Below are positions 1,158-17,493 of a stretch of 17,839 nt of DNA, piece by piece. Made by a program: the position numbers and the translations under genes. A model generated the notes under the pieces. The model was not told the origin of the DNA, did no database searches, and saw only the letters and a list, made by a program, of their open reading frames with translations. Within the stretch, counting starts at the first letter, position 1. Each line of letters opens with the position of its first letter. Location: contig CAYYWO010000013.1 in assembly GCA_964474885.1 (NCBI GenBank), positions 1-17,839 on the forward strand, written 5' to 3'. The stretch comes from Candidatus Hadarchaeota archaeon. Its GTDB lineage: Archaea; Hadarchaeota; Hadarchaeia; Hadarchaeales; JAWBSP01.

Positions 1158-2211
1158 TTTTTATTCTCCCCCGAGAATTAATGTGGGAAGGCGACCTTCA
1201 GGTAGGATCGATTTTACATTAAGAATTGATAAGCAGCTATACGAGAGATTGAAGGAAATAAGCCAGTCTACTGGAAAATCCATAGCAGATCTCTTAGAAC
1301 CAAAGATTATTGAGTTAATAGCATTATACGATTCAAATTTGAAGAATAGTAAGAGTGGGCTCGCCCGGATTCGAACCGGGGACCTTCGCCTCGTAAGGGT
1401 ATCGTTGAAAGACCTCTACACCAAACATAAGAAGAAATTCATAGAGTATATGCGAAAGAGAGTGAAAAAAGGAGAAATCTCAGAAGAGACTGTGGATGAT
1501 TACATATCAGCGCTTGATAAGAACTTATCTCATGTAATGCATCCAGATGAGCTTGAGGAATTGGTTCTAAAGGTAAAGGGTGACAAATTCGCTAAGGGTC
1601 TTAGAAATTTCTTCAACTACTTGGAGGATAGAGGAATCACGGATATAAATGGCTATGATCTTGACAAGTGGCGAAAGAAGACACCAATAAAGAAATATGG
1701 CTCGAGAGAAATCTTCATTAGTGATGATGAGCTAAAAGAAGCTTATTATTCTCACATCAGAAAACAAAACGACGAAGAGCTTGAATTGGTATTCCTGTTA
1801 TTAGTTTACAGCGGACTTAGACTTAAACATCTCTGGAGAGCCTTGAAAGCTTTCGATCCTCAAAATGTTGTTCAAGTAAATGAAAAAGTGATAAGATATC
1901 CTGTTTTCTCTGTTTCAAGAGGAAAGAAGAAAGCTTATTGGCTTTATTGTCCATCAAGCATCAAATTGAGAAAAATAACACAAGGATATGACTATTTTGA
2001 AGAGAATATTATTTACAAGAGAGTTTCAGCGATAACGATCAGAAGTTGGAATTATAATTTCTTGATTTTCAAAGGCGTTCCAGAATCTGTTGCTGATTTC
2101 ATTCAAGGCAGAGCAAGTGTAACAGTCGGTTCAAGACATTACTTGGCAAAGACTAAGCAAGCTGATGAGTGGTATACCCAAGTTGTTGATAAGTTTCCTC
2201 TGGAGGGTTGA
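1144..2211 (+). CDS. int: SSV-type tyrosine integrase with N-terminal ribbon-helix-helix (RHH) domain
   Basis: YSGLR, TIRSW, ADFIQGR and RHYL catalytic motifs; FTLRIDKQLYERLKEISQSTGKSIADLL RHH pattern; attP inside the coding sequence. Confidence 0.93.
   Translation: MERDNFYSPPRINVGRRPSGRIDFTLRIDKQLYERLKEISQSTGKSIADLLEPKIIELIALYDSNLKNSKSGLARIRTGDLRLVRVSLKDLYTKHKKKFIEYMRKRVKKGEISEETVDDYISALDKNLSHVMHPDELEELVLKVKGDKFAKGLRNFFNYLEDRGITDINGYDLDKWRKKTPIKKYGSREIFISDDELKEAYYSHIRKQNDEELELVFLLLVYSGLRLKHLWRALKAFDPQNVVQVNEKVIRYPVFSVSRGKKKAYWLYCPSSIKLRKITQGYDYFEENIIYKRVSAITIRSWNYNFLIFKGVPESVADFIQGRASVTVGSRHYLAKTKQADEWYTQVVDKFPLEG
1356..1399 (-). other. attP: attP: 3' half of tRNA-Val(TAC)
   Basis: Minus strand reads CC-CTTACGA-GGCGA-AGGTC-CCCGG-TTCGAAT-CCGGG-CGAGCCC-A: anticodon loop with TAC, T-arm, 3' acceptor strand and discriminator. 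The 5' half is absent. Confidence 0.92.
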
Positions 2212-2545: not shown

Positions 2546-2621
2546 TTATTACGATCGTCTTATTATTTATTCTTTTACATTGTTTACGCCAATATATTGG
2601 TTGGTTTTTGCAAGGGGGTGA
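2546..2621. promoter_or_regulatory. Divergent promoter region (AbrB gene / structural operon)
   Basis: AT-rich gap between divergent genes; perfect palindrome CCAATATATTGG at 2589-2600; GGTGA RBS at 2617-2621. Confidence 0.5.
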
Positions 2622-2628
2622 GATCAAG

Positions 2629-2991
2629 GTGTTGAAGAGCGTGAGGGCTAAGCTCGCTTTAAAGTTGGCCAAGAAATTCGGCATCACAAAAGAAATGATC
2701 GAAGAAAGGAAGAAGGAGTTCTTGGCATGGCTTTCTGAGCGAGGATTGCAGCCAAGCTGGGAGAACTATGTTGCATTCATAAAAGATACGAGGGGACAAG
2801 GGAACCTAATTGATTGGGTCATAGGTGTCATTCTTTTGGCAATTCTCGGCGTTGGCGTGGCACTTCCGATCGTCATAGACACTGTTAATCAAATATCGCC
2901 AAATCTGTCGGGCACAACGGCCATGATCGTCGGAATTATTCCGACGATCGTGGTGGTAGTAATACTACTGATGTTCCTTGGCAGGCGTTGA
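2629..2991 (+). CDS. Major capsid protein candidate (VP1-like hydrophobic hairpin, long leader, class III cleavage site)
   Basis: GTG start after GGTGA; about 56-aa charged leader ending FIKDTRG|Q; two hydrophobic helices with an NLS sequon in the loop; first gene of the structural block. Confidence 0.75.
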   Translation: MLKSVRAKLALKLAKKFGITKEMIEERKKEFLAWLSERGLQPSWENYVAFIKDTRGQGNLIDWVIGVILLAILGVGVALPIVIDTVNQISPNLSGTTAMIVGIIPTIVVVVILLMFLGRR

Positions 2992-5801: not shown

Positions 5802-6058
5802 CCATTCGAGTTCCAACAGAATACTTAGTAATTTATTCGTTGTTTATTATATTTTTGTGGGTATTAAATGGTATCTTCCTAGCTAGAGATTTCATGCACT
5901 TTCAGAGAGCTTGTGAGAAGTATAAGCTCGATGATGTTGATGTTTTCCTTCATCCGACAGAGGATTATCCCGATGATGTGAAAAAAGCCGTTGGGAGAGC
6001 TTGGAAAAGTTTGATAATTTGGTGTGCGGTTACAGTCCTACTATTCGTTGGTTGTTAG
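5780..6058 (+). CDS. Two-TM membrane protein; probable start at ATC 5780 (fallback TTG 5840)
   Basis: AGGAGGTGA at 5765-5773; frame open from 5774 to 6058; two hydrophobic segments. Confidence 0.65.
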   Translation: MSFYDILTIRVPTEYLVIYSLFIIFLWVLNGIFLARDFMHFQRACEKYKLDDVDVFLHPTEDYPDDVKKAVGRAWKSLIIWCAVTVLLFVGC

Positions 6059-6073
6059 CGAGGAGGTGATAAT

Positions 6074-6253
6074 TTGGCAAGAAGGGGAAGGAAAGGAAGA
6101 AGGAAAGGAAGAAGAGGAAGAAGTGGAAAAAGAAGAGTGAGTTGGAAAACTGTGATGGCTAAGATAAGGAAAGGGCAGAGATTGACCAGAAGGGAGAGAG
6201 AGTTCCTTTCTAGAGCATTAGACAGAAGAAAGAAAGCCAAAGATGAAAGATAG
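6074..6253 (+). CDS. Protamine-like basic protein, 59 aa (not in ORF track); VP2-like DNA-binding candidate
   Basis: AGGAGGTGA at 6061-6069, TTG start; MARRGRKGRRKGRRGRSGKRRVSWKTVMAKIRKGQRLTRREREFLSRALDRRKKAKDER; 28 of 59 residues are K/R. Confidence 0.85.
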   Translation: MARRGRKGRRKGRRGRSGKRRVSWKTVMAKIRKGQRLTRREREFLSRALDRRKKAKDER

Positions 6254-6255
6254 CT

Positions 6256-6768
6256 ATGTCGCTCTTAAGCAAGCTTAAGGAAAAGGTTAGGAGAAAGAGA
6301 GAAGAGGTAGAAATCCAGGGAGTTAGCAGACCGAAGAAAACCGAGAAGATAAAGCGGTTTTTCACTATTGGAAGAGGGATAGCAAAGGAAGAGAAAAGAA
6401 GAGTGAGACGAGTTGAAGAGCTGCTTGAAGAAGCAGAGATCAAGGAGGAAGCTAGAAAGATCGTTAGTAAAGCTAAGAAAGCGGGTGTAGAAATCTCGCT
6501 TTTGGAAGCTGAGAGCTATGTGAGGCATAAGAAGAGGCAGAAAGAGCGAGAGAAGAAAATACAGATGGTAAAAAGCTTGGTTTCGAAAGGTTTTAGCAAT
6601 TTCTTAGAGGCTACAGGTTTTCCAGAGGAATATAGACCTAAGAAGGGTAAATCCAAGAAGAAGGGGAAGAATAAAGCGAAGAGGAATAGTGGAAGAAGAA
6701 AAGGGAAGAAGACAATTGTTAGAAGAAGTAAAGGAAGAAAGAGCACACCTATGATTCTAAGGTGGTGA
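6256..6768 (+). CDS. Highly basic K/R-rich protein, 170 aa
   Basis: Begins 2 nt after the previous stop; charged helical core and a K/R/G tail. Confidence 0.82.
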   Translation: MSLLSKLKEKVRRKREEVEIQGVSRPKKTEKIKRFFTIGRGIAKEEKRRVRRVEELLEEAEIKEEARKIVSKAKKAGVEISLLEAESYVRHKKRQKEREKKIQMVKSLVSKGFSNFLEATGFPEEYRPKKGKSKKKGKNKAKRNSGRRKGKKTIVRRSKGRKSTPMILRW

Positions 6769-6843
6769 AAAATGATTTGCTTTAAATTATATTTTTTAAT
6801 TGTTAAATTGCTTGAAAAGTTAAACTTGATCGAAAAGAGGTGA
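6769..6843 (+). promoter_or_regulatory. AT-rich gap, possible terminator and internal promoter
   Basis: Only sizeable gap in the + block; T-run and TTTAAA/TTAAA boxes; GAGGTGA RBS at 6837-6843. Confidence 0.4.
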
Positions 6844-6849
6844 TTGATC

Positions 6850-9264
6850 ATGATCATTTCATCAAAACTCTTCCGGTTGAGTCTGATCATCTTGGGAATG
6901 ATATTGGTGATAGGAACAGTGAATGCTACTGAATTGGTAGACATCAACTACACTCAGATGAAAGAAATATATCCGAAGCCAAATTGGTCAGTATTTCATG
7001 GTTTTGGATCTGATGATGCACCAAACTTATGCCTTGATGCAAGCGTGGAGGATGGAACGAATTGGTTCTTTGGTGATGGTGCAAGCAAGTCATCGGAGAT
7101 CGTTCATAGTGGTAACTACTCAGCTAAGTTAGATAGTACTGGTTACGTTAGTACGACATACACGGCTATTGCAACATCGCCTTATTTCAATGTGGAGAAT
7201 GACACCTTGTATGAAGTATCGTTTTGGGTATATTCGTACAGTAAAGGTGACACAAGGTATGCTACAGTACTATGGTACAACGCCACTGGAGCGTATTTGG
7301 GCAGAAGTGTGGACATACCTTTGGACAACCCACGCCATGAATGGGTTAAAATTATGTTCTTGGTCAGGTCACCTACTGATGCCGCTAAGGCAAGGATAAG
7401 AGTGAGTCAAATCAATTCTGAAAGTGGTATGATCGCATATTTAGATGACTTTGAGTTCAGGAAGTATACAGCGCTAATGTTGAGATATGGTAGCTATCAA
7501 GTGCCTTTGGTGATATTAGTTGACGATCTGCCCAAGACCGTCACTTTGCAAGCCAAGGTAAACATTGGTGGCAATTGGATCACGACCAACGTGACCAATT
7601 GGTCTGTAAAATTGGAAGATCAAACACTAACAGTTATATCTGCAAGCTACAACACTACATCTGGTTGGTGGGAAATCGTAACGACTATTCCAACTCTCGA
7701 TGTTGATATATACAACTTAACAGTCGAATGTGACCACACTGATACAGGGTATCACTTTTACACCAAAGGCAAGGTTTGGATTTACGAGCCAAAAGAGCTT
7801 GAGGATTTGGTAATTATCCACGTAAGCGATATGCACTTCTACGATAAGCTCGATCCGAGAAGATACGAAAACGACACCAATCTCATCAATGCGTTTTATA
7901 TTGCTGATCAAATAATAAACATCAAACCAGACATTGTAATTGACACAGGAGACTTGGGAGACAGCTATCAAGAACCACTCGAATATCTAACATGGATCGA
8001 TTACTTGAATGCGCATGGAATACCCGTATTCTACGTAACTGGCAACCATGAAGGGCATCCGAAAGGTCACTGGGAATTTAACCAAGATTACTATTGGAAG
8101 TGGGTAAAGTTCATGGGCGATCCAGACAGATACTACAGCGTCGATTTTGGAAATTACCGTTTAATAGCTATCTGGACCGATGAGAACAACACAGGTACAA
8201 CCAGCACCACAGCGGCGATGTATAATTCTCAGCTAGTGTGGTTCAAATCAGAACTTGAGGAAGCCACATCCCAAGGTAGGAAGATAATTGTTGCGATGCA
8301 TGTTCCTGCAATCTTGCCAAATGTAGGGCTTGGTACATCTTGGGCAAACATAACACAGAGAGATCTTATAATAAATTATGTGAACAACAGCAATGTTTTG
8401 ATAGTGTTACAAGGACACGAACACAACACAGAACCAGACAGTGAATTTATAAATGGAACGCTTTGGGTATTTACTCTCAGCTATGGTAAAGTTGTAAATG
8501 GCTTGGGAACTTGTGCTGATCCTGGATTTAGGATTGTGAGAATTGACGACTCTGGTGTTTATACATGGTATGTTCCTACATTCTATTACACACACATGGT
8601 TGACACGAAGAACCTATACGAGAATTGTACATTCTCTATTGACAGATTTGCAAATAAAATAGTTGTAGTGACTGAATTAGGTGAATTCTCAGAGCTTCCA
8701 ATTCAAACCGTTGAGAACGCCATGTGGCTCGGTGCTACGTTACAGTACCATCCAGACCAAGCTAATGTGCTGTTGCTCAAGGACATCAAGATTGGTAGCA
8801 AAGAATTCGTAAAGGTTCCAGCCTATGTTTCGGCTAACTGCGATGTCAATGTTACCTTGAACGAATACTCCTCCTCAAGGATTTCATTCACAGCGGATGC
8901 ACCAGAAGGAGAGAGTGTAATGTTCACAATTGGGGGATTATATCCAGATACTCTCTACAAGATCTTGGTGGATGGTAATTTAGCTAAGCTGAGAAAGAGT
9001 GATACTTCTGGAACTATAATCTTCAATTGGTCGGATTGGTCTACTCATACTTTCATAATTACGTCCTCTGAAGCTATAACCTACTCAAGCAATGTCTTAT
9101 TACCGTTAATACTTGGGGTTGGTATCGCATTATTAATACTTGCTGTAATCGCCCAAGCAACTCCAATGAGAATAGATGATATGATCTTCAAGAAGATTGG
9201 AGCTTTAGTCTTCGTTCTGATAATAGTGCTACTCGGTATGTCGTATTTCACACTTAATTGGTAA
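6850..9264 (+). CDS. Secreted, membrane-anchored carbohydrate-binding module + calcineurin-like metallophosphoesterase fusion
   Basis: Signal peptide; CBM4/9-like pattern (NLCLDASVEDG, HSGNYSAKL, YEVSFWV, YLDDFEF); all five metallophosphoesterase motifs (SDMH, GDLGD, GNHE, MHVP, GHEH); many N-x-S/T sequons; two C-terminal TM helices. Confidence 0.88.
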   Translation: MIISSKLFRLSLIILGMILVIGTVNATELVDINYTQMKEIYPKPNWSVFHGFGSDDAPNLCLDASVEDGTNWFFGDGASKSSEIVHSGNYSAKLDSTGYVSTTYTAIATSPYFNVENDTLYEVSFWVYSYSKGDTRYATVLWYNATGAYLGRSVDIPLDNPRHEWVKIMFLVRSPTDAAKARIRVSQINSESGMIAYLDDFEFRKYTALMLRYGSYQVPLVILVDDLPKTVTLQAKVNIGGNWITTNVTNWSVKLEDQTLTVISASYNTTSGWWEIVTTIPTLDVDIYNLTVECDHTDTGYHFYTKGKVWIYEPKELEDLVIIHVSDMHFYDKLDPRRYENDTNLINAFYIADQIINIKPDIVIDTGDLGDSYQEPLEYLTWIDYLNAHGIPVFYVTGNHEGHPKGHWEFNQDYYWKWVKFMGDPDRYYSVDFGNYRLIAIWTDENNTGTTSTTAAMYNSQLVWFKSELEEATSQGRKIIVAMHVPAILPNVGLGTSWANITQRDLIINYVNNSNVLIVLQGHEHNTEPDSEFINGTLWVFTLSYGKVVNGLGTCADPGFRIVRIDDSGVYTWYVPTFYYTHMVDTKNLYENCTFSIDRFANKIVVVTELGEFSELPIQTVENAMWLGATLQYHPDQANVLLLKDIKIGSKEFVKVPAYVSANCDVNVTLNEYSSSRISFTADAPEGESVMFTIGGLYPDTLYKILVDGNLAKLRKSDTSGTIIFNWSDWSTHTFIITSSEAITYSSNVLLPLILGVGIALLILAVIAQATPMRIDDMIFKKIGALVFVLIIVLLGMSYFTLNW

Positions 9265-9278
9265 GGAGGTGAGGTGTT

Positions 9279-9626
9279 TTGGCTAGAAGAGGAGGGAAAG
9301 GAGGAAGGAAAAAGAAAAGGAGTAGAAAAGGAGGAGGATTATTCAAGCCTCCGAGACATAAGGATCTCGCAAAAATTGTAACTTTCGAATCAGTTAGCGG
9401 TGCGAGGCAAGCCGCTAGGAAGCTCAAGCAATTATTCAAAAATGCCAGCTGTGAGAGAAAGCTGATAATTTTAAGAGCAACCCAATATGCGGCAAACAGA
9501 GCAAAAGCTGGTGCCAAAAACCCCAAATTCTCAGCTTCAACGAAAAGGAAGTGGTTGCAGGTCAGCAGAATTTACGAAAAAGCGTCTGATTGGATGGAAA
9601 AGAGATACATCCCTTGCAAGAGGTGA
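9279..9626 (+). CDS. Basic protein, 115 aa, putative nucleoprotein
   Basis: AGGAGGTGA RBS and TTG start; MARRGGKGGRKKKRSRK tail followed by an A/K/R-rich helical domain. Confidence 0.82.
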   Translation: MARRGGKGGRKKKRSRKGGGLFKPPRHKDLAKIVTFESVSGARQAARKLKQLFKNASCERKLIILRATQYAANRAKAGAKNPKFSASTKRKWLQVSRIYEKASDWMEKRYIPCKR

Positions 9627-11738
9627 ATGCTAGTGAAAACAGGAATTTACACTCCCTACGGATATTTCCCAAACGAAGAAGCTTATCATGAATTCCTGCG
9701 TAGGAAATTCCCAGAAATTTATGGTTCGCAGAGACCTACTCATTCTCCTCCTCAAACAACCCATAAACCAAATCAAACTGAAATAAACAGAGAATTGAGA
9801 AAACTAGTTGCTCAGGGAGTTCCACCTGAAAAAGCCGCTCAAATAGTATCGGAACGATACGGTGTCAAAGCGGAGGTTTACAAGGTACATATCCCTTCCT
9901 TGACAAAAATACATCCGAAACCAGTTAAAAGACAATTGTCTCCTTTAGAACGAATTAAGCTAGAAATTGCAAAAAGAAGGGTGGCCATCGAGCGGAAGGG
10001 AGATATCGAAAGAAGCATCCCAATGCGATTGATCTATGGTGCTGAATTGGCTGGGTTAGGATTTGTCCAAGGAGGTTTAAATGTCGCTGAGAGCTTGAAA
10101 GACTTGGCCAATTTGGCAAGAAAAAATCCAGCAGATTTTGGCAAAAACTTAGTCACTGGCTCAATCGAATGGGCAAAATCCATACCAGAGAGAGTTAAGC
10201 TTGGATTCACCGAATCTCCGTTTTTCGTTGGCACAGTAGCATCTGAAATTGCCATAGCAGAAGCTGGGGGAAGGTTGCTTGGCAAAGCAATTCCCGAATC
10301 TGTAAAAACAAAAATACCCGTAAAAACGCCAATCGAGCAGATTAGAAGAAGATTGACTGAATTTAAGCCAGCATTTACAGTAATCGAAATAGGAAAACAA
10401 AAGACGATAATGAAAGGAAAAACACCCTCAGAAGTTGCAATAGTCGGAATGAAAGATTTTGGCAAGATTCAAGAGATTAAGCCAATCTCAGCGACCGTCA
10501 TCGAAACTGGATTCAAGCTCGAAGAGGGGGAAGGATTAGGAGTTGGAAGAATACGACAGAGGCTAGGTTGGGAACTGAGAACTGAGAAAGGTGAACCAAT
10601 CCGAATTACAACAGTTTACAAGAATCTTTTAGGAAAAAGAGCTATGATCACTTCTGAGTTCGGAGAAAAAGCTATTAGGATCTTAGCTAAGAAGGCAAAA
10701 GGAGAAGAAGTCAAAGGATTCGGAATAAGGATCGGTGAAATACATCCCATCAGATCCCAAGAGATGACGGAAAAGCCAGTTATCAGAGCCATCGGAACGC
10801 CGAAAGAGTTTATTCCGAAGGAGGAAACAAAACCACCGAAAGTAATAGATGTCAGAGGATTAATCGGAGAAGCTCCAATTACAAGACCGACGAGAAGAAA
10901 AACGATCGAAGTCGGAAGGAGAATCGAGCAAATCGTAAAAGCAGAGAAAGAAGCTAAGAGTATTGCAATCGTCGATGTCAGCAAAGAGGTTAAAGCTTTG
11001 GAGAGAGCTATAACTGAGACCAAGCCAATGGTTGGCTTTGCGCCAACTATGCCTTTGGTAGTTCCACCTGTGTTCACACCGCCAACCTTTAGCTACGCTC
11101 CGCCAACATTTTCAGTTCCAACCGTGCCAGTAGAATTGGAGTTAATCAGACCAAAACCAAAGACCGAATTATTTACACCTTTGGAAGTTGGCATTCAACC
11201 AACTGTTGGATTAAAAACATCATTTGTAACAACACCAAGCCTAGTAACTAGTGTTAAACCTCTCACAACCCCCATCGAAATTATAAAGCCAAGCATTAAG
11301 CCATTAATCGAAACCAAACCTCTGGTGGAACCAATTGTGAAAGTCGAACCCATTATAATCCCCGAAACAAAACCGATCGCAAGGCCGATCACAAGTCTTA
11401 AACCGATAAGCGTTCCAATTACAAGCATTGGAATCCCGTTAATACCAATTATCAATATTCCCATACCAAATCTTGGCTTTAGCTTAGGATTTGGAGCTTC
11501 ATCGTTTGTAGTGGGCAAGCCAAGCAAAAAGAAAGGAAAGAAGAAATACATAGGATTGCTCGCTGGTCTTACGGAGGTAACGCTCACAGAGCTTTTAACT
11601 GGTCGTAAGGCCCATCATCTGATGGTTCCATCTAAAATGGCCAAGTTCTGGAAACAGACGCTCAAAACTGGCGGTATAATCGAAGTTCCGACATTTGAGC
11701 AGATTATAGGCAAAACTCGAAGGAGAGGATTGTTATGA
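9627..11738 (+). CDS. Large basic Pro/Ile/Thr-rich protein, 703 aa, putative virion protein
   Basis: GAGGTGA upstream; long ORF coupled to both neighbours; Gly/Ala-rich amphipathic region and periodic Pro-rich region. Confidence 0.8.
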   Translation: MLVKTGIYTPYGYFPNEEAYHEFLRRKFPEIYGSQRPTHSPPQTTHKPNQTEINRELRKLVAQGVPPEKAAQIVSERYGVKAEVYKVHIPSLTKIHPKPVKRQLSPLERIKLEIAKRRVAIERKGDIERSIPMRLIYGAELAGLGFVQGGLNVAESLKDLANLARKNPADFGKNLVTGSIEWAKSIPERVKLGFTESPFFVGTVASEIAIAEAGGRLLGKAIPESVKTKIPVKTPIEQIRRRLTEFKPAFTVIEIGKQKTIMKGKTPSEVAIVGMKDFGKIQEIKPISATVIETGFKLEEGEGLGVGRIRQRLGWELRTEKGEPIRITTVYKNLLGKRAMITSEFGEKAIRILAKKAKGEEVKGFGIRIGEIHPIRSQEMTEKPVIRAIGTPKEFIPKEETKPPKVIDVRGLIGEAPITRPTRRKTIEVGRRIEQIVKAEKEAKSIAIVDVSKEVKALERAITETKPMVGFAPTMPLVVPPVFTPPTFSYAPPTFSVPTVPVELELIRPKPKTELFTPLEVGIQPTVGLKTSFVTTPSLVTSVKPLTTPIEIIKPSIKPLIETKPLVEPIVKVEPIIIPETKPIARPITSLKPISVPITSIGIPLIPIINIPIPNLGFSLGFGASSFVVGKPSKKKGKKKYIGLLAGLTEVTLTELLTGRKAHHLMVPSKMAKFWKQTLKTGGIIEVPTFEQIIGKTRRRGLL

Positions 11739-11980
11739 GAAAGGATAAGAAAGGGCAGTTTACAATCTTGGCTTTATTTACTCTATTTATAACGTTGGTC
11801 GTGACAGTGCAATTTTTGCCAATGATCTACGATATATGTTACAACATAAGTCAAGTGTGCGAAGAAAAGGGAGATTATGTAGCAGCCTTTTTGGTCAGAT
11901 TAATTCCAGTTAGCATAGTAATAGTCGAATTGGCCAGTATATTCTACTATGCAAAACCATATATAATAAAGGAGGAATAG
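11735..11980 (+). CDS. Second capsid-like hairpin protein (VP3-like) with class III signal peptide
   Basis: MRKDKKG|QFTILALF...LP; NIS sequon in the loop; second helix LVRLIPVSIVIV parallels IVGIIPTIVVVV of the 2629 gene. Confidence 0.72.
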   Translation: MRKDKKGQFTILALFTLFITLVVTVQFLPMIYDICYNISQVCEEKGDYVAAFLVRLIPVSIVIVELASIFYYAKPYIIKEE

Positions 11981-11983
11981 ATT

Positions 11984-14383
11984 ATGAGATGGCTGAGCAT
12001 AATTGTGGCATTAATATTCATCTGTGCGATTGGATTGGCTGATGCCAAAATATTGGAGGATTTCGACGATGGTAGCAATGATTTTTTCGCAGTATCAAGC
12101 AATCCGAGCTATGCCCACTCGGAGGAAATAAAGAATGATGGTTTTACCAAATATTTGCGTGTTAGTTATAAATTAGTAGATGATTATCAAGAAATATATT
12201 TAACAAATAATTCATTACATACTAGAACGATAAGCTTTGAAATAAGAAAAGCTTGGTATATGGCATCTTCTGCTACAGTATATATAAAAATAACTTTGAA
12301 TAACGGATATTATACGCAGGTCAGCAGCAGCGGCGGCGGCTGGTGGTATATAACCATGATCGGAGACTCAATTTTATTCTACAAGAATGGTGCACTGGTA
12401 AATCAAGTTGACAACACTGGTGGAGATTACATAAAAGGCATCAAAATAACAGTGCGAGCTGGTAAATATTACTCCGGATACAGCATGGGCATAGACATAG
12501 ACAACATAGCCGACTACGATTTCGTAGAAATTCACGATTACGATCAAATCCTCTACAAAACTCCAACGAGCGATACAATCCTTTATCTGAAATATATAGC
12601 CAAACCTTGGGCTAATAGCGTCAAAATAAACATAAGAGATTACGACGCTGGAATCGTCGTCGATACGATCGATCTAGGCAATACAACTTATGGCAAAGTT
12701 TCTACGAACATAACTGATTGGGATCTCGGATTGTATCAAGTAGAATTGATCGTCGACGGCCAGACCGAATCGACAAACTATTTCTTCTACGCCGACGGCT
12801 TGGCAAATCACTCCGTCGCTTTGGATAAGGAATCTTATCTATCCAATGAAAATATGCAAGCAAATTACAACATAGATCCCTACTATGCTTCTTACGATTA
12901 CTTTCTCAAGATCTACGATTCGAACGGGAACTTAATAGCGACCTATCCCGTATCTGGTTCAAGCGGTGTAAAATCCGTTCCCGCTCCCGAGAAAGGTGGA
13001 ACATATTACATTATCCTAACGAGATCCGACAATGTCGAATTGGCTTATGATGTATTCGGCGTCGTCGAGCAAGTAGTTATTAAAGGATACGTGAAAGATC
13101 AGTACGGAAATCCCATCTCAAACGCAACAGTAACTTTTAATCAGCTCACCAACATTTACAACGATACGACCGACTTCAATGGCTACTACGAATCGCCAGC
13201 TCTTTACGTAGGTGCAACGATCTACGTCAAAGCCAATAAAACAGGATATCAGCCCTACGATACGAGATTTACCCCCAAGAGCGGAGGAATCTATTGGCTT
13301 AACATGACGTTGGTAAACGATTCCGAAGCTTACGGCGTCTGGGGTATAGTAAAGCAAAAACCGCTGGGAAACCCTTTGGTTGGTGTCAAAGTGGTCATCG
13401 CAAACGAGACCTACAACAATACGGTGTACACGAACGATTACGGTTTCTACCGCTTTGACAGCATAGCTAATGGAACATACACCATTACGGCATCCAAGAA
13501 CAATTATACCTCTGAAAGTAAAACGATAACCGTAAGCGGCGATTGCAGAGTAGATTTTACCCTTACACCTATATACAAGCTAACTATACTCGCAAGAACT
13601 TCGTTTGGACTTTACCTCAACGAATTTCAGTGTACCATCGAAGATCAAACAACAGGTAAGCGTTATACATTTAACACCACAAAAGGCAATGTGATTGCAT
13701 TTTTGCAAACTGGTTGGTATTCGATCTATGTTACAACCGACAGATACTATGGTTCAGCAACTGTCTATCTGTATGGTGATAAGGTTGTAACCGTAACTGT
13801 AGCCGAGCTGCCGAGTGGGTTGCAAAAACAGGTTGTAGTTTACCCTCCCTTACATGCAATAACGCTTAAGATTGTAAAAGGACTGAAACCCCTAGTAGAT
13901 GTTCCCATTGTAATTACGGATCAGTATGGCAACAGCACAACTGTTTACACCGATTCGTACGGAAGAGCGGTATTCTGGGGCAACAAGACGATAAAATACA
14001 CGATAAACGTGAACAACAGCGAGAAGGTTGTGGAGCTTTATCCTTCCGAATCTGAATACATAATCGTGATTCCGAAGGGTTTAAACTACACGGTTAATCA
14101 AACAGTTCAGCAATATACGGTTGTAAACGGAACTTGGCAATGGGGGCTGACTGGGATTGCTGGTAACTTATCAAAGCAACTGTCCCCCTCGGCAAAAGGA
14201 ATAATAACAGCCATAGTAGTTTGGTTGGCGATGTTCGGAACCGCAAGATTTATGCAGAATGCGAGCGTTGTCGGATTGATTACTTTGGTTATATTGGCTG
14301 TTATCGGCTTCGCAGATATTATAACCGCCGTATTCTGCGGCCTATTCGTCGTAGGCATGTATGTTTTGAAGAGGTGGTTATGA
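11984..14383 (+). CDS. Large adhesin/tail protein with carboxypeptidase-regulatory-like beta-sandwich repeats, probably glycosylated
   Basis: Signal peptide; repeats IKGYVKDQYGNPISNATVTF...TDFNGYY and VWGIVKQKPLGNPLVGVKV...TNDYGFY; about 20 sequons; C-terminal TM helices. Architecture is analogous to SSV1 C792/VP4. Confidence 0.82.
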   Translation: MRWLSIIVALIFICAIGLADAKILEDFDDGSNDFFAVSSNPSYAHSEEIKNDGFTKYLRVSYKLVDDYQEIYLTNNSLHTRTISFEIRKAWYMASSATVYIKITLNNGYYTQVSSSGGGWWYITMIGDSILFYKNGALVNQVDNTGGDYIKGIKITVRAGKYYSGYSMGIDIDNIADYDFVEIHDYDQILYKTPTSDTILYLKYIAKPWANSVKINIRDYDAGIVVDTIDLGNTTYGKVSTNITDWDLGLYQVELIVDGQTESTNYFFYADGLANHSVALDKESYLSNENMQANYNIDPYYASYDYFLKIYDSNGNLIATYPVSGSSGVKSVPAPEKGGTYYIILTRSDNVELAYDVFGVVEQVVIKGYVKDQYGNPISNATVTFNQLTNIYNDTTDFNGYYESPALYVGATIYVKANKTGYQPYDTRFTPKSGGIYWLNMTLVNDSEAYGVWGIVKQKPLGNPLVGVKVVIANETYNNTVYTNDYGFYRFDSIANGTYTITASKNNYTSESKTITVSGDCRVDFTLTPIYKLTILARTSFGLYLNEFQCTIEDQTTGKRYTFNTTKGNVIAFLQTGWYSIYVTTDRYYGSATVYLYGDKVVTVTVAELPSGLQKQVVVYPPLHAITLKIVKGLKPLVDVPIVITDQYGNSTTVYTDSYGRAVFWGNKTIKYTINVNNSEKVVELYPSESEYIIVIPKGLNYTVNQTVQQYTVVNGTWQWGLTGIAGNLSKQLSPSAKGIITAIVVWLAMFGTARFMQNASVVGLITLVILAVIGFADIITAVFCGLFVVGMYVLKRWL

Positions 14384-16290: not shown

Positions 16291-16833
16291 TCACCAGATC
16301 CTCCAGAAATCGTCGCTTTTCTTTTTTCTCTTGCGCTTGCTTGAGGATGAGTCACCCCAAAGAGATGGAACGTTTATTCCTAAGTCGAAGGATGACGATG
16401 ATTTCTTCTTTCGAGAGGATTCGCTTTTCTTAGAGGATTTTCCCCTCTTTGAGCTTGTTAAGGATGGAATATCAATCCCTAAGTCAAAAGATGATTCCTT
16501 CTTCCTTCGGGAAGATCTCCTTGAGCTTGTTAGGGATGGGATCTCGATCTCCAAGCTGAATCCAGAGGATTCTTTCTTAGCTTTAACAATCTTATGCCTG
16601 TCTCTCTTAGTTTTGATATGATGACATTCTGGGCAAAGCGCTTGAATGTTGCTTATGTCATCTTCTCCACCCAAAGCAAGCGGTTTCTTGTGATCAAAAT
16701 GAATAACACCTGGCTTGAGCCGCTTACCACACATTGCACACCTGTAATTCTGCCTTTCAAGAATAACTTGCTTCTCCCATTCAGAAAGCTTCTTTCTTTT
16801 CTTTTTCTTTTCACCAAATAGAAAATCAAACAT
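16291..16833 (-). CDS. HNH endonuclease with Ser/Lys-rich repeat tail
   Basis: CAMC...HFDHKKPLALGGEDDISNIQALCPECH; AAGGAG RBS favours ATG 16833; three FxLxIx[IV]PSL repeats. Confidence 0.9.
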   Translation of the reverse strand: MFDFLFGEKKKKRKKLSEWEKQVILERQNYRCAMCGKRLKPGVIHFDHKKPLALGGEDDISNIQALCPECHHIKTKRDRHKIVKAKKESSGFSLEIEIPSLTSSRRSSRRKKESSFDLGIDIPSLTSSKRGKSSKKSESSRKKKSSSSFDLGINVPSLWGDSSSSKRKRKKKSDDFWRIW

Positions 16834-16863
16834 TCCTATCAACTCCTTTCGTTAATTAAGCAA

Positions 16864-17018: not shown

Positions 17019-17171
17019 ATGGCAGTGTCAGTTAAAATCGAAATTCCAGAGGGAATGTATGAGGAAATTAAGAAGTTAGTCGACAGAAAGTTATTCAGGA
17101 ATGTAGCAGACTTCTTTTACATTGCAGGCCATGAAAAACTGTTTAGCATCAAAAGCTTGGAGAAAGAGTAA
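17019..17171 (+). CDS. CopG/Arc/MetJ-type RHH regulator, 50 aa (not in ORF track)
   Basis: GGTGA RBS at 17009-17013; MAVSVKIEIPEGMYEEIKKLVDRKLFRNVADFFYIAGHEKLFSIKSLEKE. Confidence 0.85.
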   Translation: MAVSVKIEIPEGMYEEIKKLVDRKLFRNVADFFYIAGHEKLFSIKSLEKE

Positions 17172-17180
17172 TTCTAATCA

Positions 17181-17313: not shown

Positions 17314-17491
17314 GTTGCATGCAACTGTATGCTATAATATATGCATGCAACTGCATGCAATTAGAGTTAAATGTATGCGATACTATAAAAATACTTTATT
17401 CTCTTCTTTTCTCTCATACTTTATTCTACGATTTTCTTTTGAGGAGTGAATAATAAACCAAGTTATCTAAGTTGCATGCAACTGCATGCAA
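17314..17491. repeat. Three copies of a tandem TGCATGCA palindrome unit
   Basis: TGCATGCAACTG(C/T)ATGC at 17316, 17342 and 17473; ATACTTTATTCT direct repeat at 17391 and 17416. Confidence 0.85.
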
Positions 17492-17493
17492 GG

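Follow-up and report, generated by a model that had tools for sequence, protein, structure and literature searches.

A membrane-anchored protein that joins a carbohydrate-binding-like module to a metallophosphoesterase domain in an Archaeoglobi virus-like element: a candidate glycan-targeted surface phosphodiesterase

The stretch of DNA analysed here (the window) is the whole of contig CAYYWO010000013.1, 17,839 bp long, from a 1.18-Mb metagenome bin filed as Candidatus Hadarchaeota archaeon (GCA_964474885.1). It codes for an SSV-type integrase (1144-2211; PF16795 at 8.7e-45), a DnaA-like ATPase (phrog_5484 at 2.4e-36), a resolvase-like protein, small membrane proteins, HNH and DUF488 proteins and three large proteins of 804, 703 and 799 amino acids (aa). 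The subject of this report is the first of these, the open reading frame (ORF) at 6850-9264. Its + strand frame is open from 6844 to 9264, the probable start is the ATG at 6850, and the 804-aa product runs, in order, through a signal peptide, a jelly roll like that of a carbohydrate-binding module (CBM), an immunoglobulin (Ig)-like domain, a metallophosphoesterase (MPE) domain, a stretch without a confident model, another Ig-like domain and a membrane hairpin of two helices (Table 1). The gene has a GC content of 0.41 (0.42 at third codon positions, GC3), which is like that of its neighbour genes and even across five sub-regions.

The predicted signals support a secreted, N-glycosylated and membrane-anchored product. 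By hydropathy the first 26 residues are hydrophobic, with VNA at their end, and two further hydrophobic segments lie at the C-terminus (about 742-775 and 775-804). The protein has 18 N-x-S/T sequons against 7.3 +/- 2.4 expected (2000 composition shuffles, none of which reaches 18); the integrase, ATPase, 703-aa, 236-aa and 170-aa ORFs of the window have 0-1 each, and the 799-aa ORF has 22. A first-pass annotation of this DNA, made without database searches, had read a signal peptide, many sequons and a two-helix anchor here, and hydropathy, the sequon counts and the AlphaFold helices all agree with it. The same annotation had described a CBM-like domain, a full MPE metal-binding motif set and flanking beta-rich domains, and these too are recovered below: the first by its fold, the second at nt 7828-8424 by Pfam and a motif table, and the third as Ig-like sandwiches, one at residues about 220-312 and one at about 660-739.

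The MPE domain was identified as follows. Pfam Metallophos (PF00149) matches residues 321-526 with E 2.5e-16 and 61.1 bits (cut-off 21.5) over profile positions 2-190 of 191, and PHROGs gives a metallophosphoesterase family match at E 3.9e-8. The motifs are complete: D327-x-H329, G367-D368-x-x-D371 (GDLGD), G398-N-H-E, H484 and G522-H-E-H525. All 8 catalytic positions checked (D327, H329, D368, N399, H400, H484, H523 and H525) are canonical; they comprise seven metal ligands and the catalytic His400, where we take the placing of motif residues at particular metal sites to follow the GpdQ and Rv0805 literature. The protein was folded with AlphaFold as two overlapping halves (residues 28-327 and 301-804), each with an alignment of its homologues. 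In the second half (pLDDT, the predicted local distance difference test score, 73.4) the MPE core of residues about 320-577 is well modelled as an alpha-beta-beta-alpha sandwich with 371 Foldseek matches in the PDB at E <= 1e-3, and all 50 of the 50 listed belong to the MPE superfamily. The core is closest to Rv0805 (E 9.5e-16, template-modelling (TM) score 0.80 on target), with GpdQ at 0.69-0.70, Lmo2642 also among the matches and Mre11 at 0.45-0.52. VIA places the class III/GpdQ subgroup first (Z 23.5-25.3: Rv0805 25.3, Lmo2642 24.1, GpdQ 23.8) and SMPDL3A (22.1), Mre11 (22.0) and purple acid phosphatase (21.5) next at 21.5-22.1. Rv0805, Lmo2642 and GpdQ share with the window's domain the sandwich and all the motifs (DxH, GDxxD, GNH[DE], H, GHxH); they differ in sequence (16-21% identity), and the window's domain is embedded in an 804-aa secreted, anchored protein with CBM and Ig domains. 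Thus the modelled fold is certainly that of an MPE, it leans mildly towards the diesterases, and the domain is predicted to be catalytically competent.

The first half was modelled with greater confidence (pLDDT 86.4, predicted TM-score 0.81) as a jelly roll, mostly at pLDDT >90, followed by an Ig-like sandwich. Its top Foldseek matches in the PDB are CBM16, CBM4-2, CBM22 and CBM61 modules and MAM-Ig pairs (E 1e-8 to 1e-5), the best CBM match being 2zex_B (E 3.9e-8, TM-score 0.78 on target; range for CBM16 0.72-0.78), and the CBM-like parts of phage receptor-binding proteins are also among them. A 'phosphodiesterase' family of 1066 positions, phrog_24476, matches the CBM part only (E 3.2e-6). 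Carbohydrate binding by this module is putative.

Table 1. Positions of the features discussed in the text, in window coordinates
Feature	Position (nt)	Strand	Basis or remark
attP-like copy of the 3' half of tRNA-Val(UAC)	1356..1399	-	Reverse complement, inside the intact integrase gene
Capsid-like small protein, 127 aa, two hydrophobic helices, family marker	2608..2991	+	16 non-self relatives, 47-88% identity
GAGGTGA ribosome-binding-like motif	6837..6843	+	6 nt upstream of ATG 6850; read from sequence
Predicted signal peptide, residues 1-26, end GTVNA	6850..6927	+	Hydropathy; same GTVNA end in P0003; cleavage inferred
CBM-like beta-jelly roll, residues about 64-212	7039..7485	+	Pfam CBM_4_9, phrog_24476, AlphaFold, Foldseek
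Ig-like beta-sandwich 1, residues about 220-312	7507..7785	+	AlphaFold strands, pLDDT 95-98; CBM/MAM-plus-Ig arrangement in 8a1f, 2c9a
Binuclear metallophosphoesterase domain, residues about 320-577	7807..8580	+	Pfam Metallophos, GpdQ alignment, motif table, Foldseek, VIA
Beta-rich stretch, residues 580-658	8587..8823	+	pLDDT <50; aligns collinearly with P0005
Ig-like beta-sandwich 2, conserved anchor stalk, residues about 660-739	8827..9066	+	pLDDT about 90; alignment A1
Predicted two-helix membrane hairpin, helices 746-770 and 778-803, short conserved loop	9085..9258	+	Hydropathy, AlphaFold; 44-45% identity to P0003 over residues 658-804
115-aa basic protein, inserted jointly with the MPE gene	9279..9626	+	phmmer: ApPV1 1.6e-12, G041 provirus 1.2e-11, AvPV1 1.5e-8
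703-aa conserved protein, downstream neighbour of the cassette	9627..11738	+	Homologues in L060 (42% over 523 aa, E 3e-97), L059, L061, L057, L042, L055
799-aa core surface glycoprotein, 22 sequons, conserved C-terminal anchor, variable ectodomain	11984..14383	+	Comparison with L057, L059, L060

An exhaustive search with the 804-aa protein gave 259 matches at E <= 1e-3, of which 150 were listed. A single stretch of similarity that runs from the CBM into the MPE occurs in 4 of the 150 (P0005, P0011, P0015 and P0031). P0005 is collinear over residues 32-740, that is, through CBM, Ig, MPE, post-MPE stretch and Ig-like domain, at 24% identity (E 5e-30); P0154, the full-length form of P0011, has one C-terminal transmembrane helix and is probably cellular, given the 43.7-kb contig on which it lies. 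These uncultured proteins (P0005, P0154/P0011, P0031, P0015 and also P0007) have the same CBM-Ig-MPE order as the window protein at 24-28% identity and differ from it in that they have no two-helix hairpin. The first-pass annotation had known of no such architecture in archaeal spindle viruses. Such an arrangement was not found in any described archaeal virus (50,697 phage and archaeal-virus records searched by tblastn, IMG/VR scans and the literature), and to that extent the statement stands; the CBM-Ig-MPE order itself exists in these apparently non-viral proteins, and virion MPEs exist in tailed phages.

At the C-terminal end, P0003 (682 aa) is the only non-self match that reaches 1e-30, and it shares with the window protein only the end of the signal peptide and residues 658-804, inter-helix loop included, its middle being different. 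A close homologue of P0003 in a related element (L042) is a 688-aa LamG protein (PF13385, 2.2e-19) whose stalk is 39% identical to the window's; the same element encodes an integrase fragment, an HNH protein with 84% identity to that of the window and, as homologue of the 703-aa protein, one of 837 aa. Of the 150 listed homologues, 29 match in the C-terminal part only, and 10 of these 29 have a two-segment C-terminal anchor; the ectodomains joined to that part include, by Pfam, LamG (P0020, P0084, P0141), BNR (P0018), PKD, beta-helix/NosD (P0010 with its cluster member P0153, P0019, P0150, P0089) and polysaccharide deacetylase (P0024; weak in P0008). Among the loci found in a metagenome scan with alignment A8 (L054-L056), the module genes P0008 and P0037 (in L054 and L055) lie directly upstream of a 703-like gene, whose L055 copy is 36% identical over 72 aa (E 8e-7) and whose L054 copy is near-identical N-terminally before the contig end cuts it. 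The module is sporadic, being present in 2 of 96 Archaeoglobi class genomes, the set to which all the Archaeoglobi counts below refer. Because the anchor is common to the LamG-lectin proteins of related elements, the enzyme sits where those relatives carry lectins.

The contig itself is an episomal virus-like element. The first-pass annotation had taken the enzyme to be virus-encoded, and the integrase, attP, DnaA-like ATPase and collinear proviruses (below) bear out the virus-like nature of the element. SSV-type integrases have attP within the integrase gene, and the window's attP-like copy lies there. The 44-mer att sequence is exact in 21 loci of 20 genomes; the record titles name Archaeoglobaceae/Archaeoglobales for 7 of the loci, Thermoplasmatota/Thermoplasmatales for 3 and only 'archaeon' for 11; 16 of the 20 genomes fall in a class-level list centred on an Archaeoglobaceae genome. 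A thalassapleovirus-like provirus (G041:C31:83458-98510, L038) is integrated at the tRNA that has the window's exact 44-nt att. Its integrase is split at the att point into residues 1-70 and 85-353 (69-73% identity to the window's), and its resolvase (71%) and ribbon-helix-helix protein (85%) are likewise near the window's, so that it has the same integration module with a different virion module. The window's own bin was considered as the host and rejected, since its tRNA-Val(GAC) matches attP at only 86%; the large contigs of that bin have a GC content of 0.52-0.56, and the window has 0.39. The stretch is present in two hydrothermal vent metagenome DNA runs, and no RNA run was listed with it.

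The bin is compositionally mixed. Seven small low-GC contigs (C28, C34, C36, C43, C47, C51 and C54) have duplicate tRNAs, and the same contigs carry homologues of thalassapleovirus genes (integrases, XerC, AvPV1 gp16). One of them, C54, has 101 bp at 94% identity with window positions 17073-17173.

As to the origin of the CBM-Ig-MPE unit, it matches 0 of the 96 Archaeoglobi genomes at E <= 1e-5. When the whole 804-aa protein was compared with three sets of 5 genomes that have the exact att, it gave matches in 0 of 5, weak or partial matches in 5 of 5 and a weak match in 1 of 5; in the second of these sets the best match is the P0003 anchor in G053, and the best to the MPE is a 508-aa ORF (26% identity, E 1.2e-11). 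Among 40 relatives of the bin no close homologue of the protein was found, and 5 of the 40 gave weak partial matches (best E 4.2e-8, to the CBM part), which is a further reason for rejecting the bin as host. Recent capture of a host gene, which the first-pass annotation had named (for an unexpressed gene) among the possible refutations, is rejected, since there is no match in the 96 Archaeoglobi genomes and GC and GC3 are like those of the neighbours. The unit is therefore either old in this lineage or derived from an unsampled donor.

Other searches for relatives gave little. In IMG/VR none of five queries (the 804-aa protein, P0003, the ATPase, the 703-aa protein and the profile of the capsid-like family) turned up a relative; megablast of the window and tblastn of the 799-aa and 127-aa proteins against the phage collection found no match, and neither did a metagenome scan with P0006. 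Word-index searches with the whole 804-aa protein and with residues 655-804 alone returned only the protein itself, and a protein atlas placed the 804-aa protein only with generic Metallophos clusters (score 0.82, below the 0.9 mark).

The capsid-like 127-aa protein ties the element to proviruses. A profile of its relatives matches 8 of the 96 Archaeoglobi genomes (E down to 4.5e-54), and two of the loci so obtained have the window's gene order, namely L060 and L059, the latter inside a contig of 1.56 Mb. The order common to all three is integrase, capsid-like protein, 130-, 236- and 126-aa proteins, ATPase, 72-aa protein, 703-like protein, 81-aa protein, 799-like protein and 148- and 110-aa proteins. 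This collinear 12-gene block and the conserved two-helix capsid-like protein of 120 aa mark an Archaeoglobi (pro)virus family (the window and loci L057-L062) that is distinct from the Thalassapleoviridae and apparently undescribed. The 703-aa protein is a core protein, kept in all related elements examined (L042, L055, L057, L059, L060 and L061); its C-terminal third is rich in Pro, Thr and Val, its tail is lysine-rich, and it has no family match. The 799-aa type is probably the family's primary receptor-binding protein: its C-terminal ~190 aa are 43-51% identical in L057 (6913-8088), L059 (9155-11347) and L060 (2139-4826), and its ectodomains have been swapped (CarboxypepD_reg/Big_1 in the window, LamG in L059, DUF2341 in L060 and CBM_4_9 in L057).

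The MPE gene has a different status. With the 115-aa gene it forms an accessory cassette of roughly 2.8 kb (6850-9626) that is present in 1 of the 5 family members examined, so that the earlier description of the ORF as lying in the middle of the virion gene block holds by position and fails if it is taken to mean a conserved virion gene. The gap between the 72-aa homologue and the 703-like gene measures 867 nt in L059 and 374 nt in L060, and the ORFs in the L059 gap resemble, by eye, the window's 59-aa and 170-aa basic proteins. The 115-aa protein has no match in the five related loci L057-L061 and is homologous to a gene that directly follows the VP4 fusogen gene in ApPV1, AvPV1 and the G041 provirus. 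The two genes may have arrived together as a cassette in which the 115-aa partner is the one that accompanies the fusogen in thalassapleoviruses, and from its repeated position we speculate that it is a functional partner of the MPE protein. A 117-aa gene beside the L042 module protein was tried as a homologue of the 115-aa gene and rejected (E 8).

How does the element compare with described viruses? The Thalassapleoviridae (AvPV1, ApPV1) share with it the integrase type, resolvase, NTPase, 115-aa gene and host class. A virion module of their type was rejected for the window: VP4, ORF6-like and VP3 profiles against the MPE, 799-, 703- and 127-aa proteins give hhalign probabilities of <1%, and a VP4-like fusogen and a VP3-like protein were not found in the window (hhalign 0.3-0.6% against the profiles of four viruses; no phmmer match). 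They are the only Archaeoglobi viruses described in the accessible text of PMC10919331 and PMC12451623. The gene order resembles that of TPV1 (resolvase, integrase, small membrane proteins, ATPase and large proteins including ConA-like lectins); detectable similarity to TPV1 proteins is limited to the integrase (3e-34) and resolvase (1e-3), and the host class differs. The 127-aa protein has the build expected of an SSV1 VP1-type capsid protein (a hydrophilic N-terminus and two hydrophobic helices joined by a loop with a sequon), with no significant similarity to TPV1 gp15 (BLASTP E 0.61) and no PHROG or Pfam match. The name 'spindle virus' given to the element by the first-pass annotation is thus kept as an analogy, drawn from the TPV1 gene order and the capsid-like two-helix protein of an element known here from its genes; the SSV-type integrase, attP and DnaA-like ATPase are shared with pleomorphic viruses as well and do not define morphology.

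A parallel lies in the Thermococcales spindle viruses. According to the accessible text of a 2026 preprint (PMC12934983), two highly modular lectin proteins anchored by transmembrane helices are core genes of these viruses and are proposed to track host glycans. These proteins (TPV1 gp22/gp23, the PAV1 homologues, ConA1/ConA2) are, as far as that text describes them, likewise large and secreted, with jelly-roll glycan-binding modules and C-terminal transmembrane helices; they follow the ATPase in a layout of integrase, small membrane protein, ATPase and large protein, and their ectodomains are swapped between relatives, as here. Phosphoesterases are not mentioned in the same portion of that source, and within its compass it is the enzyme that sets the window protein apart from the lectins. 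In tailed phages the MPE fold occurs in large virion proteins, for example the Enterococcus phage Idefix 'Virion protein with calcineurin-like phosphoesterase domain' in BFVD (a collection with many phage MPE proteins), and receptor-binding proteins such as CBA120 TSP4 and mycobacteriophage Douge gp20 share CBM-like jelly rolls with the window protein; however, the Caudoviricetes MPE and CBM proteins are tail or baseplate proteins without a membrane anchor, and none was found with the window's domain order. In the accessible part of one published account an MPE is an auxiliary gene of a tailed Poseidoniales virus. A literature search for MPEs or phosphodiesterases of archaeal viruses or phage virions, judged by its listings, found nothing that describes a surface enzyme of this kind. 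Anchored lectins are known; what is new here is that the anchored modular glycan-binding type of protein of vent archaeal viruses carries an enzyme.

The above comparisons suggest how the protein might act. It would be exported through its signal peptide, N-glycosylated and fixed to a membrane by the C-terminal Ig-like stalk and two-helix hairpin, whose short conserved loop would face inwards, and the CBM-like module and binuclear MPE would be displayed outside. The CBM would bind to a host-envelope glycan, carried by the S-layer glycoprotein or the matrix, and the MPE would cut a phosphoester close by. The likeliest target would be a phosphodiester, be it in a phosphoglycan, in a glycerophospho head group or in some comparable part of the envelope; the cut would aid attachment or penetration, or would free progeny and block re-infection. 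The most economical proposal for the substrate has a surface phosphodiesterase attack a phosphoglycan or head group of the envelope. Our favoured reading, to which we give about as much credence as doubt, is that ORF 6850-9264 encodes an accessory surface glycoprotein of a temperate, non-tailed Archaeoglobi virus from hydrothermal vents, and that this glycoprotein is a glycan-targeted surface phosphodiesterase. The analysis shows the order of the domains, the intact motifs, the signals for export, glycosylation and anchoring, the viral surroundings, the accessory status of the gene and the anchor held in common with lectin proteins of related elements; virion incorporation, enzymatic activity, substrate and biological role are what we infer.

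Several observations weigh against this reading. The match of residues 64-185 to Pfam CBM_4_9 (PF02018; E 5.3e-4, 20.8 bits) is under the gathering score of 25.9, although the homologue P0006 reaches 29.2 bits; we hold to the CBM identity despite the score because the jelly-roll fold matches those of CBM4/9/16/22 type. Fold scores separate the MPE enzyme classes poorly (Z 21.5-25.3), and residues 580-658 have no confident model (pLDDT <50). The Ig-like stalk is found also without viral context, in P0005, which has no transmembrane helix, and in P0089, which has cohesin and dockerin, so the domain alone is no mark of a virion protein. The MPE and 115-aa genes are absent from the collinear L059 and L060, and in two other members (L057:11261-12625 and L061:3314-4798) the gene directly upstream of the 703-like gene is a radical-SAM gene (PF04055, about 1e-23; one with SPASM), which lies within the morphogenetic block and close to where the cassette stands in the window. 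Family virions thus form without the MPE protein, and it could act in the host membrane only.

But does the protein ride on virions, or does it serve the host cell that carries the element? In the second case it would be a lysogenic-conversion enzyme that remodels the envelope for superinfection exclusion or releases phosphate for the host from organic phosphoesters, and not a virion component. The accessory nature of the gene and the metabolic type of the radical-SAM gene in the same region are in accord with this, as are uncultured homologues such as P0154, which look like ordinary cell-surface enzymes; in addition, related viruses of Archaeoglobi are produced chronically and without lysis of the host (PMC10919331). 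Against it, the Ig plus hairpin anchor is common to lectins that adjoin conserved virion-block genes in three other elements, a protein with such an anchor would probably be carried along if the virions bud through the cell membrane or take their own from it, and no phosphate-regulon context was seen in the surroundings. We prefer the protein on virions, in evenly balanced confidence, and regard action confined to the host membrane as distinctly the less probable, though the strongest of the rivals.

Two other readings concern the MPE domain itself, and both appear unlikely. It might be a surface nuclease of Mre11/SbcD or 5'-nucleotidase type that acts on DNA or nucleotides of the biofilm matrix, for path clearing or nucleotide salvage: the best sequence-level PDB matches are to Mre11 (E 2.4e-4, N-terminal motifs only), the Mre11 Z of 22.0 is near the top, and many BFVD neighbours are SbcD-like. 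In sequence, however, Mre11 matches motifs I-III only (residues 320-402), neither the capping nor the DNA-binding domain of Mre11 gave a match, the fold of the whole domain favours Rv0805, Lmo2642 and GpdQ (TM-scores 0.80 and 0.70 versus 0.45-0.52), and the fused module is of glycan-binding and not DNA-binding type. Of much the same low probability is a purely adhesive protein, in which the MPE fold would be a scaffold or binding domain without turnover and the whole would serve, like a lectin, as an additional receptor-binding protein. LamG lectins, which are non-catalytic, do occur in relatives that have this anchor, and several full-length CBM-Ig-MPE homologues have altered ligands (H484E and H523D), so the fold tolerates ligand change in this class of protein. 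Both substitutions are present in 5 of the 37 aligned MPE-bearing homologues (P0005, P0031, P0007, P0046 and P0062), and P0154 has H523D. In the window protein, on the other hand, the seven metal ligands and His400 are canonical although its nearest relatives are only 24-28% identical, and this is the pattern expected under selection for catalysis. That the contig is chimeric or mis-binned and the ORF a cell's own gene for a surface enzyme, as the mixed bin and the low GC of the contig might suggest, is very improbable, since both flanks on the one contig are collinear with Archaeoglobi proviruses, GC and GC3 are uniform over the gene and its neighbours, and 0.99 of the words sampled from positions 6000-12000 occur in one DNA run, possibly the source.

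If the favoured reading, a glycan-targeted surface phosphodiesterase of an Archaeoglobi virus, is right, it bears on entry and release of the non-tailed archaeal viruses, which are poorly understood. To our knowledge the surface proteins of these viruses are lectin-like or fusogenic and none is catalytic. A surface phosphodiesterase aimed by a CBM would suggest that Archaeoglobi, about whose envelope chemistry little is known, have a receptor or barrier that contains phosphoesters, and it would also be a thermostable enzyme. More tentatively, and with doubt outweighing belief, the stalk-plus-hairpin may, in non-tailed viruses of hyperthermophilic archaea, be a cassette holder for swappable ectodomains that include enzymes (a phosphodiesterase here, deacetylase-like and beta-helix domains elsewhere), which would make the window protein the first enzyme of a membrane-bearing archaeal virion that processes or destroys receptors. 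If this is true, its counterparts in function would be the depolymerases of phages, or the neuraminidase or esterase that enveloped animal viruses carry. The family, in which one modular surface glycoprotein is conserved and an accessory slot varies, offers a natural comparison with and without the enzyme, namely the window versus L059 and L060.

Some minor features lie near the right end of the contig. Neither Rfam nor a tRNA scan found anything in the window. The HNH endonuclease gene (16291-16842, - strand) has a tandem repeat in the C-terminal half of its product (DNA repeat 16445-16555), and the core of the protein is the part that is 84% identical to the L042 HNH protein. A 20-mer of the type TGCATGCAACTG occurs three times in the non-coding stretch 17316-17492 near the contig end, and these copies may be origin or regulatory iterons.

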